28,444 nt of DNA, taken from positions 1 through 28,444 of the forward strand of contig CAZALK010000028.1 in assembly GCA_964486045.1 (NCBI GenBank), written 5' to 3'. Origin of the DNA: an uncultured archaeon (GTDB lineage: Archaea; Asgardarchaeota; Lokiarchaeia; Sigyniarchaeales; SOKP01). Positions 1-18,414 of this stretch are shown piece by piece (position 1 is the stretch's first letter; each line of letters begins with the position of its first letter). Below the pieces are notes generated by a model that saw only the letters and a program-made list of their open reading frames with translations, had not been told where the DNA came from and made no database searches. Position numbers and translations under genes: made by a program.

Positions 1-233
1 TAATCAATTATTCACTGACTTATAAGGTTTGAGCTATTACTTTCCTTTAAAATCTAGCCACTTCTTTCGTTAATTATAAATCATTCTGTAAACTCTTTCA
101 TAATTTCTGTATTGTTTAAGGCTAAATGTAATTTAAATAGTAATGAAACCTCATTAACTTGAAAGGTTTAAGCTAGTAATTTCATTATATTGAAATTTTT
201 AATGACTAAATATGAAAAAAAGAAAAAAAAGCG

Positions 234-833: not shown

Positions 834-950
834 AGTTTCAGAAATCTTTCTAAATCCTTTTTATCTTTATTATTATTTTATATGTTTTTTGGTTATTTAT
901 TACAATTCATTTCTGTTTTTAGATTTTTTTATATTTACCGAATTATTACC

Positions 951-1371
951 TTATACTACTATAAGGTTTCTCTATTTATTCATTTTTAATTTCTTTTTAA
1001 ATCCTATTAACATTTATCACAAATCTCTTATTGTATTATATTTTTAATTTGTCTAAACACCAAATTCCCAAAAACTTGTTTTTTTGCTCATATTTTTTTT
1101 ATAACTTTTATATCAGAAACATTTTTTTTCGTTATTAAATTGTCTAAAAAATAGTTGTTTTCTATAATATGAACTAGACTAATATAATCTTGTTTCTATA
1201 AATTTCAATTCTTTCCTAAAGTAATAGAGATTGATTTATTTTATACTACTATAAGGTTTTAATTTTTTATTTAATTATACTATAAATATATTCTAAACTA
1301 ATTTAAATAGCTTACTTTACAATTCTCATACAAGAGGAAGAAAAAATATTATTTTATACTTCTATAAGGTT
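951..1371. repeat. Three dispersed direct copies of TTATACT(A/T)CTATAAGGTT in a long AT-rich intergenic region
   Basis: Copies at 951-968, 1241-1258 and 1354-1371 (one mismatch in the last). A partial TATAAGGTTT is at 21-30. Confidence 0.85.
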
Positions 1372-1571: not shown

Positions 1572-2762
1572 TTATCCAATCCAATCTCCCGTCGTCAATT
1601 TTTCCGGTAGGTATTCATCTGTTAGAAATTTAAACCCATGTGCAGATAAGGCTTGTATCTCTGCCTTTATTTTGAGCTTTAATGAAAGTCTTATATCATC
1701 TGACCATTCTTTATTTTTTAATACATAACCTTCATTGAGAAGCTCTTTAGATCGTTTAATATCTTGAGCTGTCATTGGAATTCTTACTTCTTTTGGAATG
1801 TTATATTTATCGAGATCACGGGTTAAAAGTCCAAGTAATTTGATGTCGGGAGTAGCCAAGAAAGGAGATTCATAACTTAATCTTTTTGAGCCACGCAAAT
1901 AAACCGAAAATATGTACATTCCATACGGATCTGCATCCACAAGTGCAAAGACTGGCAAAGATAATTCTTTACTTAATCTTTTCAAAAACATTCGAACAGC
2001 AACATTTCCAACACCTTGAGCTGTCAACAGTATACAAGGATATTTCCTCCAAAATCTTGCTTCTGCTAAACGCATCATTGCAGCATCCTTTTCAATTACA
2101 AGGATAAACTCCGCGTCAGACTCAATTATGTCAATGTTGTCTAGCATTGGTGAAATGGTCCAACCCCCACTTCCTAGTCCTTCTAGATCGATTATGTCAT
2201 TCCTATCCCGAATTCTTAATCTTCCAACACAAGTACCCTTTGGAGCAGCTACTACGTGTGTTGAGTTTCTAGTTGCATAAAGCATTGTTGCAACATCTTC
2301 AATACTTTTATCACTATTCTTTTGTTCTTGAAATAAATTAACATCAGTATAGAAAACCTCCCTTTTTGTAGCGTGAATATCTTCATTAAGTAATTCATTT
2401 ACTACTTCCAGCACTCGCATTAATCTTGTAATATCAGCTACACTCGTTAGAGTATGAAATTGTTTTTCCATTATTTGTTTGCCAAGTAGTAATAAATCGT
2501 TTTCTTCATCCCACATTATATTTGTCGCTGATCTAGATGGTAACTCGATTGAGGGTCTCCCAGATTTATAAATTTTTTCAAGAATATCATCAACTAATTT
2601 ATATAATCGATTAAGAGTATCTCTCCGGTTAAGATCATCAATTTTTACAGTATTGGGGGGGAGAGAAATACTTTTTTTTACTTTTCCCTTTTCTAAATAT
2701 TCTATTAATAGCTCTTTCGCTGCCTGTAAATTATAATTATTGCTTTTTTGCTTTTTTGACAT
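1572..2762 (-). CDS. top6A: DNA topoisomerase VI subunit A (Spo11 family)
   Basis: TKREVFY with the catalytic Tyr in the WHD, TOPRIM motifs IEKDA and DADPYG, C-terminal KAEIQAL. Directly downstream of top6B. Start taken at ATG 2762 (MSKKQK). Confidence 0.96.
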   Translation of the reverse strand: MSKKQKSNNYNLQAAKELLIEYLEKGKVKKSISLPPNTVKIDDLNRRDTLNRLYKLVDDILEKIYKSGRPSIELPSRSATNIMWDEENDLLLLGKQIMEKQFHTLTSVADITRLMRVLEVVNELLNEDIHATKREVFYTDVNLFQEQKNSDKSIEDVATMLYATRNSTHVVAAPKGTCVGRLRIRDRNDIIDLEGLGSGGWTISPMLDNIDIIESDAEFILVIEKDAAMMRLAEARFWRKYPCILLTAQGVGNVAVRMFLKRLSKELSLPVFALVDADPYGMYIFSVYLRGSKRLSYESPFLATPDIKLLGLLTRDLDKYNIPKEVRIPMTAQDIKRSKELLNEGYVLKNKEWSDDIRLSLKLKIKAEIQALSAHGFKFLTDEYLPEKLTTGDWIG

Positions 2763-2775
2763 TTTTCTTCTCACT

Positions 2776-5700
2776 TTATTTTAATTTCCAATGTTTTCTT
2801 CCCATCTTAACTTCTACTAACACTTCTCCTTTTCGTTCTAATTCTTTGAGTTTCAGTTGAAGATATCTCGCATCCATCATATCTTTAATTTTTAGTTTAA
2901 AAATAAGATGTTTAATTGTCTGCAAATCAGTAGATAATGCTTTGAGGATTCCATCGGTAGTTATTATTGGTAAGGTTGTTTGAGTGGATTTTGGTTTTGA
3001 AGGTAGTAGCTTGGATTTAACCTTACTTGGAATTTTCTTTACAGATAATTCGACTTTTTTTAATTTTACCACTTTTGTTAGTTGCGCTAAAGGTTCTACT
3101 ATTTCTGTTTTTTTATAGGTTTTTAATTCAGGCTTCTTAGTACCATCTTTAATTCCTAAAGAGTCAAGAATTTGATCAATTATATCAGGTTTCTTTGTTT
3201 TTGAGAGAATATGAATATTTTTTCTATTACAATAATCCTTAAGCTCTTTTACGGACCAATTAAGCAATGTTGTTTTAGAAATAATTTCTTTTTCAATTGG
3301 TTTCTCTCTCTTTTTAATCTCTATTTCTGACTTTTTTTCTATAATTTGATCTTTTTCTTTAATTTCAACAACTTGAGGTGTTTTGGGTTTTAAATCATTA
3401 ATGGTAGTAGGAGCAGGCTTTTTGTCTATCGCTTCCTTCATTAAAGTTTCAATTTCTTTAAGATCTAACATTGCTTTAAATTTACTCTCCCCTTTAGATG
3501 CAATATTATATACACTTTCAGCGAATAGTGGGATATATTTTGCTATTAAACTTGATCTTTTTTCATTTCTATAAATACTCTCTTTCCTGTTAATGTAAAC
3601 TCTTAATCTTCTTCCTATTGCTTCAAGGCAAAATTTAATTTCTTTTATTAAATCACCATCATCTGCTAAGGCGTTTTTTGATTGAGATTTAAACATTAAA
3701 TGTACAAATGGTCCAGAAATGTTTACGAGTAATTTTATTGGACCTTTCGGTAAACCATTATCGTATCTCTCAAGATTGTAGTTTTTCCAGTTAACTGACT
3801 GAACTGCTTTTGTGATTGCACAATCAGCACTATCTCTTAACTTAGGTGTTCTATTCACAAATCTAGATAATACATCTCTTGAACGTTTAGGAACTTCTAT
3901 ATTTCTTGAATAAGCCAAAACGGCTTCTACAATATATGCTAATCCCTTTCCACTCGTAGGTGCTCTAGTCTCTGCTGATACGAAGTCATCATCTTTTGTG
4001 TAATTTTCAATAAAATATTCAAATACTTTACTATAATTTTCAATTGATTCAACTTCAGAATATGCAAATAGTTCATCAATAGCTTGCTTAATTTGTTGAT
4101 CTTCAAGTTTTTGATTTTCATCAATGTAATTGATATTTCTTAAAATAGCATAACTTAGATTGATGACTTCTTCTGATTCTACAGAAACATTATTATTAAT
4201 TTCAGAATGATTATTGATATCTTTATTTAATATATCAACTGTCTGATTTATAGTTTCGATTGGTGGATCAAAATCATCAACACCTTCTGAAATTTTGAGC
4301 CCAATTTCTTTTATTAGTGTGTTTTCTAAAATTGATTCACCAACAGGTATCGCTGTATCCGTTGGAGGTGCCATATATTTAATAGATTTAAATGCTAAGA
4401 ATAATGAATTAAATTGTTCTTTAGTAATATCACTTGGCTTTACATTTGACAGCTGAACTTTCCTAATTAAATCCTCGAAATCACTTCGATTTGTTATTTT
4501 TTTTAATTCAATTAACCCATTTAAGTTTCTTTGAATTAAATTGTTTAGTTCCTGTTTGATTTTTTCTTTATCTTTTTTGATTTTATCAATATTTTTAATT
4601 AATGCTTTTATTTCCTTTTCCAGCTTCTTCTTTTCCTTTTGGGTATCAACCTTTTCAACACGATTATTTATTTTTTTAATTTCTTTATTAATTTTTTCTG
4701 AACTCTTCTCAATCAGAATATAATTCGAGATTAACATCCAATATTTTTCTATGAGATCCTCAGAGTCTACCCGATAAATTATTAGTTTATCCCTCGGTTT
4801 AGTTGAACGACCAAAAATTCTTTTTTCAACTTTTAGATAATGGATTTTTTCTTCTTTTTTTTTAATCTTACTAATATACCCTTCCTTGAGAATCAGAAAA
4901 TTAAATTTATCCTGAAGGTTTCTTTCAGCCAATTTAATAATTTGATTGGCAGTTTTTGAGCTAATTCGAACAAAATTTTCTTTTAAGAATGATAAAATTG
5001 ATTTATTTTCAGATTTTGTAATTAAATCCTGGAGATCGCCAATATTAGCTGAAGAAGGATGAGGTTTTGCATATTTAGGCTCTTGTGGAAAATAAGATGC
5101 TAATCGACGGTAAATTTTTTCTTTTCCATAAGGATCAGTGTAAATTACTGTAATGTGAGGATTCATAAAAGCAGTTTCTTCAACATATTTTTCTACGTAA
5201 CCCCTTACATATTTAACGTTTAAATAATTCAATTTAATATAGGTTCCGTGTAAAAATGGGCTATCAATATCGGTTGGATGAATTAAATATTTCTTCTCAT
5301 TTTTAGACGTAGTAAAAAATTCACTAACTGTAGCATAGACATTATCAACAGTCTTTGATACAGCTATAATGGGTTTTCCCGTCGTGTTTTGTGCATCACT
5401 AAAAGCACTTGGTGATCCGAATCCTTGACTCCCTCTTGTTTGTTTTAATTCCATTGATTTAGATGAAGCTAGATACTTTCCGAATTTTCTTAAATCAATT
5501 TTTGACATTCCTGTTCCGTTATCAAATATTTCAAAAGTAAAACTCATGACATTTTTCTGACTTATTTCAGATGTCAAATATGAAGGAGCTTCAAATTCTC
5601 TTATACGGACTATAGCAATCGGTTCCACATCTATAATATTTTCAACCGATTCTATGATCTCTTGCATATCATCAATTATTCTTTTAACTTCCTCCTCCAC

Positions 5701-6108
5701 TTCTAATTTAGTTTGACCAATAACATCCCCAGATTCTTCTTCTTTTATTTCGAGTTTAAAAATGGCAGATTCCTCCAACTTAGGTGATTCTATGCCAAAT
5801 TCTTGCATGAGTGTGTGTTTGGCCTCGTTATCTAATTGCTGGGTCTTTTTTTCCTCATTTGCAGCTTCTAAAATTGAAAACTTTTCTAGAAATAAATCTT
5901 GATCCAAAGAAAATTTAAATTTTGAATCAGTTTTTCTTAATTCTTTCCATTGGAAGCTTTCAATAGCATCAAGTGCATTATCAATAAATTCTGCACAATA
6001 TTGAACATGTTTCCAATATCCAAATTCAAAACCTACTAATTGGGTGCGTTTTCGCATAAATTCTGCGATTGTACCTTGCTTTATTTTTCCTTCCTCTTCA
6101 GTTGAAAT
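2776..6108 (-). CDS. top6B: DNA topoisomerase VI subunit B, greatly expanded (~1100 aa)
   Basis: GHKL motifs EFIDNALDA, DNGTGM, SSK..QTRGSQGFG, HGT; KPHP before the H2TH domain; transducer RFVNRTP, VNWKNY, FKSQSK. The conserved N-terminal AEF strap lies upstream of the ORF-track ATG (6057), so the start is placed tentatively at ATT 6108. Confidence 0.93.
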   Translation of the reverse strand: MSTEEEGKIKQGTIAEFMRKRTQLVGFEFGYWKHVQYCAEFIDNALDAIESFQWKELRKTDSKFKFSLDQDLFLEKFSILEAANEEKKTQQLDNEAKHTLMQEFGIESPKLEESAIFKLEIKEEESGDVIGQTKLEVEEEVKRIIDDMQEIIESVENIIDVEPIAIVRIREFEAPSYLTSEISQKNVMSFTFEIFDNGTGMSKIDLRKFGKYLASSKSMELKQTRGSQGFGSPSAFSDAQNTTGKPIIAVSKTVDNVYATVSEFFTTSKNEKKYLIHPTDIDSPFLHGTYIKLNYLNVKYVRGYVEKYVEETAFMNPHITVIYTDPYGKEKIYRRLASYFPQEPKYAKPHPSSANIGDLQDLITKSENKSILSFLKENFVRISSKTANQIIKLAERNLQDKFNFLILKEGYISKIKKKEEKIHYLKVEKRIFGRSTKPRDKLIIYRVDSEDLIEKYWMLISNYILIEKSSEKINKEIKKINNRVEKVDTQKEKKKLEKEIKALIKNIDKIKKDKEKIKQELNNLIQRNLNGLIELKKITNRSDFEDLIRKVQLSNVKPSDITKEQFNSLFLAFKSIKYMAPPTDTAIPVGESILENTLIKEIGLKISEGVDDFDPPIETINQTVDILNKDINNHSEINNNVSVESEEVINLSYAILRNINYIDENQKLEDQQIKQAIDELFAYSEVESIENYSKVFEYFIENYTKDDDFVSAETRAPTSGKGLAYIVEAVLAYSRNIEVPKRSRDVLSRFVNRTPKLRDSADCAITKAVQSVNWKNYNLERYDNGLPKGPIKLLVNISGPFVHLMFKSQSKNALADDGDLIKEIKFCLEAIGRRLRVYINRKESIYRNEKRSSLIAKYIPLFAESVYNIASKGESKFKAMLDLKEIETLMKEAIDKKPAPTTINDLKPKTPQVVEIKEKDQIIEKKSEIEIKKREKPIEKEIISKTTLLNWSVKELKDYCNRKNIHILSKTKKPDIIDQILDSLGIKDGTKKPELKTYKKTEIVEPLAQLTKVVKLKKVELSVKKIPSKVKSKLLPSKPKSTQTTLPIITTDGILKALSTDLQTIKHLIFKLKIKDMMDARYLQLKLKELERKGEVLVEVKMGRKHWKLK

Positions 6109-6377
6109 TTTAAACGCGCTCTTTTACTTTTTTACTCATCTATCTTTATAATATACTAGAAAATTAAATTCATTTATTCCCAAATTTTTAATATTGACAT
6201 AAATTGAAGGATTGAAAAACTAATATTGAAATCATTAATACTAGTATTAATTTACTTACTGCTTCACATCTAACTGTAATTAAATTAGTATATAAATATT
6301 TTCATGAATCCGAAAACCTTAAAACGATTTTATTTTAAATAAGGGAAGAAGAAAAATGGCTTTAATTCAAGGTATAG

Positions 6378-17171: not shown

Positions 17172-17399
17172 AATTACTCTAATGTCCATCGAACTTCAGT
17201 GGTCATAAGAGAATTTTCTCAACAAGCACAATTTTTAGTAATCAACCACCGCGAAGAAAATATTGTAAATTCTGATAGAATTTATGGCGTATCTATGCAA
17301 CAAAGTGGAATAACAGATATATTTAGTGTCGATTTGGAGGAAGAAGCTAAAAGACTATTAGAACTTGAAGAAATCGAATCCACAATTACTGAAAATTAA
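17172..17399 (+). pseudogene. smc: Extreme C-terminal remnant of chromosome segregation ATPase Smc
   Basis: (N)YSNVHRTSVVIREFSQQAQFLVINHR...SDRIYGVSMQQSGITDIFSVDL matches the Smc C-terminus after the D-loop, including the H-loop. In-frame TAG at 17139-17141. No Walker B, signature motif, hinge or N-head. Directly upstream of scpA-scpB. Confidence 0.88.
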
Positions 17400-17421
17400 A
17401 AACAAAAAAGGTGAAAAAAAA

Positions 17422-18414
17422 ATATCTGAGGAAAATAATTCAAGTAATAATTACAATTTTCATCAATGGACTGTAAAACAGTTGAAGGAGTTTGCTAAAA
17501 AGAATAGCATCAAACTCCCAACAAAATCAAAGAAAAAAGACATTATTGAATTACTTAAGAAGGTTGTAACACATGATGGATTTGTCAATAAAACTCAAGA
17601 AGTCGAAGAAGAATTAGTAGCTGGTTTTGATGATGATGAAGATTTTGCTTTAATGAGAAAAGAAAAGATGGAATTGAAATTTTGGCAAAAACCACCCTTT
17701 TCAAGCCTATTAGATTCAGAATTAGCTAAAGAGTCTGAAATAGCGTTTTACGACCTATCAAGTTTAGTTGATGAATTTTTTGATAAAATGCTTCATGAAG
17801 ATTTAATCAATTATAAGATATCTGGTATTGCTCTTAAAACTTCAGCTTCATTACATCATTATAAAATATCGAGTATAATACGACAAGAAGAACAAATTCA
17901 AAAAAAAGAAGAACTGGAGCTATTTCGACGACGACATTCACGATCAATCCCAAAAGCCCTACCTCAACCTATACAACCTAAAATGCAAATTGCTACTAAG
18001 GATGAATTATTTGATGCAATGAGATCAGCAATAATTGAAGTTATGCAAAATAAAGAAAAATTAAAAAGAAGAAGAATACGACGTGAAGAATTGAAGGAAC
18101 ACAAAATACAAATGAAATCTAAAGCCCGATTACCAAAAGAACTTCTGAAACATATTAGTGGAAAAGAACAAACAGTTCAGGAATTACATGAATCATGGTA
18201 TAATCGAATAAAGGGCACTATTAACTTAAATAATAAAGAATCTAGCTTCTATGATTTAACCCGCATAATAAAAGATGAAGAAGATAGTGGTATTGGCAGG
18301 AAATTTTCTCTAGTAAGAATGTTTTTAGCATTGATGTTTCTATCTACTGGGAATAAACTGAACTTGGCTCAAGATGAAGATTTCAAAGATATTTCCATAA
18401 ATATTCGACAATAA
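17422..18414 (+). CDS. scpA: Kleisin ScpA with an N-terminal HeH (SAP/Rho-N-like) extension
   Basis: N-kleisin block YDLSSLVDEF...INYKISGIALKTSASLHHYK and C-terminal WHD LVRMFLALMFL..NKLNLAQDEDFKDISI; smc-scpA-scpB order. Start placed at ATA 17422 behind GGTGA; the ORF track gives TTG 17365. Confidence 0.85.
   Translation: MSEENNSSNNYNFHQWTVKQLKEFAKKNSIKLPTKSKKKDIIELLKKVVTHDGFVNKTQEVEEELVAGFDDDEDFALMRKEKMELKFWQKPPFSSLLDSELAKESEIAFYDLSSLVDEFFDKMLHEDLINYKISGIALKTSASLHHYKISSIIRQEEQIQKKEELELFRRRHSRSIPKALPQPIQPKMQIATKDELFDAMRSAIIEVMQNKEKLKRRRIRREELKEHKIQMKSKARLPKELLKHISGKEQTVQELHESWYNRIKGTINLNNKESSFYDLTRIIKDEEDSGIGRKFSLVRMFLALMFLSTGNKLNLAQDEDFKDISINIRQ

Follow-up and report, generated by a model that had tools for sequence, protein, structure and literature searches.

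DNA topoisomerase VI (Topo VI) is the main archaeal decatenase, and the meiotic Spo11 complex descends from it. Active research in Methanosarcina mazei is directed at how the Topo VI B subunit, Top6B, recognizes crossings and bends in DNA. In the cryo-electron microscopy structures of the M. mazei Topo VI-DNA complexes, the H2TH residues R263, K268 and K308 hold the arms of a bent duplex (PMC13040014). In this work, we analyzed the Top6B of an uncultured Lokiarchaeia archaeon, encoded on a contig of 28,444 nucleotides (CAZALK010000028.1, assembly GCA_964486045.1), hereafter referred to as the window. The protein has the same domain order, motifs and Top6A partner as the canonical Top6Bs of M. 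mazei (2q2e_B, 9o0g/9o8p; 621 amino acids (aa)) and Saccharolobus shibatae (2zbk_B; 530 aa), but it carries three insertions of ~105-160 aa each and is nearly twice as long. In addition, the C-terminus of the M. mazei protein is an Ig-like domain, whereas the Loki form has a tail with a HeH motif and a winged helix in its place.

Previous reports on Asgard archaea noted C-terminal extensions of Top6B (PMC9348778), an extra transducer helix common to the Asgard and eukaryotic proteins (PMC9665070) and multiple Top6A/B pairs (PMC12680538), and a co-evolution of gyrase and Topo VI was proposed with respect to C-terminal domains (Villain et al. 2022; PMC9348778). Plant Topo VI likewise has extra DNA-binding factors (RHL1, BIN4/MID), but as separate proteins (PMC9665070). 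A description of the three Loki inserts was not found in the literature searched, and the Loki Top6B is, as far as its sequence tells, a lineage-specific variant of a known enzyme with a predicted function. A comparable addition in the type IIA family, in another domain and fold, is the 170-aa Toprim insertion of Escherichia coli GyrB, which is lineage-specific, folded and contributes to DNA binding.

The contig (C28) lies within the window in full and belongs to a genome of 5.18 Mb, 99% complete and with a contamination of 7.8%, in which this is the single Top6B. The names of its homologues assign the organism to Lokiarchaeia (Promethearchaeota in the NCBI nomenclature). We give slightly better than even chances to the reading that the four lineage-specific additions to the intact core of this only Top6B extend DNA reading, tethering and regulation.

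The Top6B core and its start codon

The protein was recognized by NCBIfam PRK04184 (304 bits, cut-off 274) and Pfam Topo-VIb_trans (PF09239; 97 bits, cut-off 24), and its score with TIGR01052 (283 bits) falls under the cut-off of 381 because the inserts split the match. Its best matches both in sequence and in fold are the Top6Bs of M. mazei and S. shibatae, with M. mazei 9o0g/2q2e at the top of the Foldseek results. Counting residues from the first ATG (open reading frame 2776..6057, minus strand; 1093 aa), the N-box residues E23 and N27, the G1 box D179-N-G-T-G183 and the G2 glycines G209, G212 and G214 are invariant or nearly so in comparison with canonical Top6Bs. The transducer keeps W757-K758-x-Y760 and the switch lysine K794, of which W757, Y760 and K794 are invariant in the alignments. 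The H2TH domain aligns to M. mazei 235-311 as two pieces (334-377 and 539-584) and keeps its basic contact residues K359, R364 and K560, the counterparts of M. mazei R263, K268 and K308; the second insert enters between them, at M. mazei 281/287. According to these alignments, the Top6B core is complete, comprising the strap, the GHKL fold, the H2TH domain and a transducer with the WKxY motif and the switch lysine.

The N-terminal strap is encoded in frame but 5' of the annotated ATG, so that its translation would require the non-canonical start ATT. Within window 6058-6126 (minus strand), the 17 codons preceding this ATG encode the strap peptide KIKQGTIAEF, which is conserved with synonymous changes in 10 loci of the same genus. 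The open frame extends upstream to 6123, there is no ATG, GTG or TTG in the top6B frame between the strap codons and the upstream stop, and in locus L005 this frame opens at an ATT directly after a TAA stop. The ATT at 6108-6106 is probably the true start of top6B and would yield a protein of 1110 aa; most database gene calls of the Loki-type Top6B family are probably truncated, because most of them begin at MRKRTQL. At its other end, top6B lies directly upstream of top6A, which starts one base past the top6B stop.

Four additions and their conservation in Lokiarchaeales

The limits of the inserts were taken from the phmmer alignment to M. mazei 2q2e_B. Four blocks of the query match this protein (3-34/24-55, 174-377/75-281, 539-584/287-332 and 690-856/335-497) and leave unmatched residues 36-146 (insert 1, I1), 378-538 (I2), 585-689 (I3) and a 237-residue tail (857-1093). 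The spacing between invariant anchor residues, measured in 148 Top6Bs, is 151 residues here versus 31 canonical from the N-box to G1, 230 versus 74 from H333 to P564, and 133 versus 30 from P564 to R698. Net charges are -15 for I1, +16 for I2, -16 for I3 and +23 for the tail. The first-pass annotation of this DNA had read the frame at 2776-6108 as an intact Top6B of about 1100 aa with its catalytic motifs in place, and the uninterrupted frame and the motifs kept in the alignments bear this out; its coordinates for the inserts hold to within a few codons against the M. mazei alignment, and its description of two acidic inserts, a Lys/Glu-rich one and a basic tail fits the computed charges. The length of 530-620 aa that it gave for archaeal Top6B is indeed typical but not universal, since many of the representatives at 50% identity measure 780-1570 aa, owing to inteins or other insertions.

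An AlphaFold2 model built on an alignment of 88 sequences reached a mean predicted local distance difference test (pLDDT) of 78.5. I2 is the best-defined addition (pLDDT 87-95), with a small beta sheet (387-430) followed by an antiparallel helical hairpin (433-469/473-510) with arms of ~37 residues each, and it also folded by itself (pLDDT 83.5). In I1, a low-pLDDT loop (42-113) precedes a confident and conserved helix (114-138), and I3 was modelled as four helices with pLDDT of 42-70. A Pfam scan of each insert alone returned only sub-threshold coiled-coil noise, and an ESM Atlas look-up of I2 gave scores of at most 0.77 and no usable lead.

The protein aligns over its full length with >120 homologues from the databases, which share 59-84% identity with it and measure 1050-1180 aa, and every Lokiarchaeales genome sampled retains all four added parts (~50 genomes with the same uninterrupted frame). 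Proteins of a family of the same order (f2) are 44-45% identical, yet they match over residues 2-1092. In 120 aligned homologues the inserts are nearly gap-free, their charge sign never flips and the length of I2 is constant at 160-165 aa. Identities to the query were computed by region over these 120 homologues, and the ratios of nonsynonymous to synonymous substitutions (dN/dS) by the Nei-Gojobori method in 47 pairs with dS <1.5 (Table 1). The inserts conserve length and charge, show dN/dS well below 1 and, in the case of I2, fold confidently. As judged from these comparisons, the four additions are maintained by purifying selection across Lokiarchaeales.

Table 1. Features of the top6B-top6A locus, with identity to the query and dN/dS by region. 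The dN/dS ratios are rough because dS is near saturation in these pairs.
Feature	Window position (strand)	Residues	Identity	dN/dS	Remarks
top6B gene	2776..6108 (-)				probable ATT start 6108-6106; annotated ATG 6057-6055; stop 2778-2776
N-terminal strap and N-box helix	5953..6108 (-)				strap GTIAEF, upstream peptide conserved; E23, N27, N-box invariant
I1	5620..5952 (-)	36-146			acidic; between N-box helix and first beta strand
I1, N-terminal part			0.63 (residues 36-124)	0.15 (residues 36-113)	
I1, C-terminal part			0.78 (residues 125-171)	0.085 (helix, residues 114-146)	
Remaining GHKL ATPase fold and first H2TH half	4927..5619 (-)				G1 D179-G183, G2 G209-G214; K359, R364
I2	4444..4926 (-)	378-538	0.56-0.60	0.17	basic, folded; within H2TH domain
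Second H2TH half	4306..4443 (-)				K560 = M. mazei K308; APPTD motif
I3	3991..4305 (-)	585-689	0.46	0.29	acidic; at H2TH-transducer junction
Transducer	3427..3990 (-)				WKxY 757-760, K794; stalk helix 801-855, further helix 866-877
Linker 1	3283..3426 (-)	878-925			Lys/Glu-rich, disordered; pLDDT 32-35; identity 0.23-0.36
HeH/SAP-like motif	3154..3282 (-)	926-968	0.51	0.24	three helices; pLDDT 94-96
Linker 2	2971..3153 (-)	969-1029			Lys-rich, disordered; net charge +12
C-terminal winged-helix-like module	2779..2970 (-)	1030-1093	0.78	0.09	H-H-H-E-E; pLDDT 90-95
Linkers (both together for dN/dS)			0.29-0.36	0.53	
Core			0.85-0.95	0.06	
top6A (Spo11-type A subunit)	1572..2774 (-)				PF21180 197 bits, PF04406 66 bits

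These data bear on two explanations that would deprive the additions of a function. The first attributes the extra length to an artefact, namely an intein, the insertion of a mobile element, a fusion by frameshift or an assembly error. Other Top6Bs are indeed lengthened by inteins, as also noted previously (PMC9348778), with anchor residues of the GHKL fold or the transducer 340-740 residues apart; the Loki inserts, however, stand at other sites than those long insertions, no Hint or homing-endonuclease domain was detected by Pfam either in the whole protein or in the inserts taken alone, and the recurrence of the same uninterrupted frame in >120 homologues and ~50 genomes leads us to reject an assembly or frameshift error. 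We regard the chance of an artefact as negligible.

According to the second, the inserts are functionless, tolerated growth of disordered loops, driven by an AT-rich genome that favors Lys, Glu, Asn and Ile. In agreement with it, the GC content is 25-33%, residues 42-113 of I1, I3 and the linkers combine the lowest identities with low pLDDT, and the linker dN/dS is 0.53. Furthermore, other lineages carry insertions at the same three loops that are unrelated to the Loki ones, and these loops can be considered permissive hotspots because insertions arose there independently elsewhere. On the other hand, I2, the HeH motif and the winged helix fold confidently, dN/dS is 0.09-0.29 for all inserts and modules, and length and charge sign are kept in the 120 homologues, with the inserts persisting at 44% identity. 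Tolerated growth is therefore improbable as a general explanation, and probably applies just to the linkers and to portions of I1 and I3.

Enlarged Top6Bs of other Asgard archaea and the distribution of gyrase

Of the four additions, only I1 is shared with Thorarchaeia, whereas I2, I3 and the tail occur in Lokiarchaeales or Lokiarchaeia only. Insertions at the I2 site extend across Lokiarchaeia, with I3 and the C-terminal winged helix present in Lokiarchaeales; one protein of 987 aa has I1, I3 and the winged helix without I2. The closest relative outside Lokiarchaeia is a long Top6B of Thorarchaeia (~673 aa; P0140 cluster), 43-45% identical in the aligned blocks. Its I1 is organized as in the Loki form: a Trp follows immediately on the N-box, and a variable loop leads to a conserved helix ahead of the first strand. 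It lacks I2, I3 and the HeH/winged-helix tail. We also considered the N-box-G1 insertions of other lineages as relatives of I1; they lie after the first strand and could not be aligned with I1, and are thus independent events.

The Top6Bs of Helarchaeales (1250-1350 aa; L019, P0137, P0375) belong to the same class and have a short I1 and a large insertion exactly at the I2 site. The insertion differs from that of the Loki form in that it consists of tandem copies of the protein's own H2TH unit, and I3 is absent. In the 1248-aa protein of one genome (G205; L019:3227-6973, minus strand), the H2TH unit at 545-619 recurs at 853-924 (E = 1e-14) and at 780-843. These proteins also have an N-terminal extension with a possible winged helix, on a reading of the sequence only, followed by a Lys/Pro-rich linker. 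The H2TH repeats at the I2 site imply that one and the same DNA-contact domain was enlarged in different ways in two lineages. In the Heimdall, Hod and Kari groups, Top6B has a compact core (GHKL ~35-165, transducer ~340-540) followed by a C-terminal HhH array (L016, on G026:C1; L017:5741-12757; L018:1574-4915), with protein lengths of 2200-3900 aa and open frames from ~1100 to ~4300 aa. These HhH tails hold all of the extra mass and bear no sequence relation to the Loki inserts; the likeness lies in the enlargement of an Asgard Top6B with presumed DNA-binding modules in lineages that have gyrase.

GyrA was detected in families f1, f2, f5, f14, f22, f24 and f25, all with an expanded Top6B, and in some Heimdallarchaeia genomes gyrB, gyrA and top6B are adjacent. 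In contrast, it was detected in 1/43 genomes of the Thor-type family f7, whose three Top6B copies led us to assign it to Thorarchaeia, and most families with a compact Top6B gave no GyrA at all. This distribution fits the co-evolution idea of Villain et al. 2022 and, on the sequence evidence, would extend it to internal inserts. Considered together with the Helarchaeales and Heimdallarchaeia forms, the Loki Top6B suggests that Topo VI was repeatedly re-tooled, largely where gyrase is present.

Two minor observations concern the gyrase genes themselves. In locus L017, the 2338-aa Top6B is directly preceded by open reading frames of 668 and 827 aa; the 827-aa frame overlaps the GyrA match, and the 668-aa one is presumed to be GyrB. 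In addition, several Asgard GyrA frames are 1266-1738 aa long with the Pfam match in pieces (e.g. G159:C41, G186:C10 and G157:C15), and such long frames with a split match suggest inteins in Asgard gyrA.

Predicted DNA tethering, protein docking and the small gene after top6A

In the model that we favor, the basic beta platform and hairpin of I2 would most likely extend the surface with which the enzyme senses bent and crossing DNA. The tail, with a HeH/SAP-like motif and a winged helix on flexible Lys-rich linkers, would most likely anchor the enzyme on DNA or on a partner bound to the chromosome, and the acidic I1 in the GHKL domain and I3 at the H2TH-transducer junction would most likely act as counter-charges or regulators of the basic parts. 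Next to the gyrase of these cells, Topo VI would thereby serve as a decatenase or relaxase tethered to the chromosome, and other gyrase-bearing Asgard lineages would reach a similar end through H2TH repeats or HhH arrays. A folded basic arm maintained across a whole order within the DNA-contacting H2TH domain, together with the tethered modules, represents a natural experiment on the mechanism of Top6B.

HeH/SAP motifs are mostly DNA binders. The copy in the query is below the Pfam thresholds (SAP, E = 0.21), and in 44 homologues the motif is recognized as Rho_N in 14 (best 3.4e-11), Ish1 in 8, SAP_new25 in 8, HeH in 4 and SAP in 3. It recurs on a 319-aa SAP-bearing protein and resembles the N-terminus of the kleisin ScpA, encoded in the same window (38% identity over 39 aa). 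The scpA gene (17365-18414, plus strand) carries this motif at window 17458-17556 (plus strand), and ScpA itself matches Ish1 and Rho_N. As for the terminal winged helix, copies with 65-83% identity are fused to SLFN_AlbA_2, HEPN_Swt1 and TPR proteins or stand alone as small proteins of 74-90 aa, all on Loki-type metagenome contigs (P0462, P0421, P0459, P0420 and P0458). Going by the sequences, this identity is unusually high for a module common to unrelated proteins, and its occurrence on several of them suggests an address or docking module. In the ESM Atlas, it scored 0.92 solely against small proteins, and the nearest named cluster, BlaI/MecI (0.88), is a mere lead. A 221-aa protein of the same genome (G000:C4:126352-126525; L041:1477-2142, minus strand) has three Topo-I-type C4 zinc ribbons and a C-terminal winged helix, which is 34% identical to that of Top6B over 58 aa (E = 1e-5).

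This raises the possibility that the additions are mainly protein-protein modules: the winged helix would be a docking adaptor that brings several enzymes to a common partner, and the hairpin or the acidic inserts would bind the product of a small neighboring gene or SMC-ScpAB, or link holoenzymes. The spread of the winged helix, which includes the zinc-ribbon protein, argues in favor of this possibility, as do the HeH motif common to the kleisin ScpA and the fact that antiparallel hairpins are frequent protein-interaction elements. The small gene, coding for 172 aa, follows top6A in 51/53 other Lokiarchaeales genomes, co-occurring with I3 and the winged-helix tail; with the query used, it was found in 0/7 genomes of other orders, which are devoid of I3 and the C-terminal winged helix. 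A Pfam search with its product gave nothing significant, and the protein may be a candidate extra (third) Topo VI subunit. Against a docking function, I2 is basic in 120/120 homologues and lies inside the H2TH domain that binds the DNA arms, HeH/SAP motifs belong mostly to DNA binders as mentioned above, and the additions of sister lineages at these positions are clear nucleic-acid-binding folds. We therefore consider mainly protein-protein roles possible, though doubtful.

Several observations nevertheless weigh against extended DNA reading and tethering as the role of the additions. First, neither Pfam nor a PDB profile search with an alignment of the winged helix (up to E = 10) gave any match, and the spread of this module would fit a protein-docking adaptor as well as a DNA binder. 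Second, fold searches with I2 (Foldseek, VIA-align) returned only generic helical hairpins, such as those of ESCRT-III, the SMC/Rad50 arms, the seryl-tRNA synthetase arm and ING4, with the beta part barely covered. Besides, the AlphaFold2 model is of a monomer only, and I1 (residues 42-113) and I3 were modelled at low confidence. Finally, families f16 and f27 have an HhH-tailed Top6B and GyrA was not found in them, and the association between gyrase and expanded Top6B rests on few independent lineages.

It is tempting to speculate on a joint reading, in which Top6B was enlarged on at least three independent occasions in gyrase-bearing Asgards, and the Loki winged helix and the ScpA-type HeH motif form a chromosome-targeting code that places Topo VI, perhaps with the 172-aa protein as a third subunit. 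The winged helix would then be a lineage-specific address tag common to nucleases, AlbA_2 proteins and the zinc-ribbon protein. We offer this broader proposal as an unlikely one.

The first-pass annotation had also proposed that accessory functions, supplied by separate subunits in plants, are built into this Top6B, and that this is relevant to the origin of the Spo11/TOPOVIBL machinery. The former idea stands in part. Since sister lineages add other nucleic-acid-binding modules to Top6B, built-in accessory functions are reasonable, and I2, the HeH motif and the winged helix are conserved and look like functional modules, for which such a role is plausible with moderate confidence; for the acidic I1 and I3 it is weakly so. 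However, a separate small gene after top6A, kept across the order, may encode an extra subunit, so that not every accessory part would be built in. As to the latter idea, the inserts would be in-cis equivalents of plant RHL1 and BIN4 and a step towards the eukaryotic machinery. Extra DNA-binding modules on Topo VI do resemble the supposed role of RHL1/BIN4 (PMC9665070), and the most similar copy is the long one of Thorarchaeia, presumed to be the Asgard copy placed nearest to eukaryotic Top6B (PMC12680538). The distribution of the inserts speaks against it: only Lokiarchaeales or Lokiarchaeia have I2, I3 and the tail, the Hodarchaeales and Heimdall forms have compact cores and unrelated HhH tails, and TOPOVIBL has a degenerate GHKL fold and has lost the H2TH domain, with a linker in its place (PMC9665070), whereas the Loki protein retains intact GHKL motifs and has an enlarged H2TH domain. 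No RHL1/BIN4-like family was detected by Pfam in the inserts, and no eukaryotic Top6B was found among the representative matches, the named clusters of which are Thorarchaeota, Planctomycetota, Diapherotrites and Marine Group III. We consider an RHL1/BIN4-like intermediate very improbable, and the locus to have no direct bearing on the origin of Spo11/TOPOVIBL, because the Loki-specific parts are absent from the lineages nearest to eukaryotes.

Returning to the 172-aa gene, in 36 genomes checked it lies on the same contig, ~1.2 kb beyond top6B (4.9 kb in G104). In the genome analyzed here, it is located on another contig (G000:C15:2330-2845; the copy of the relative G210 is at L046:39-557), directly preceded by a 101-codon remnant of the 3' end of top6A, both within G000:C15:2010-2845 (L003, L047). 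This remnant is 77% identical to the Top6A of the window and 94% identical to that of G210, and downstream of the top6A of the window there are instead 740 bp of AT-rich non-coding DNA (834-1571). Breakage or replacement of the operon, or a mixed bin, are possible reasons for this split. Another member of the family, G183, has two full top6B operons (C91:4684-8043 and C29:16547-20044), each with its own copy of the 172-aa gene.

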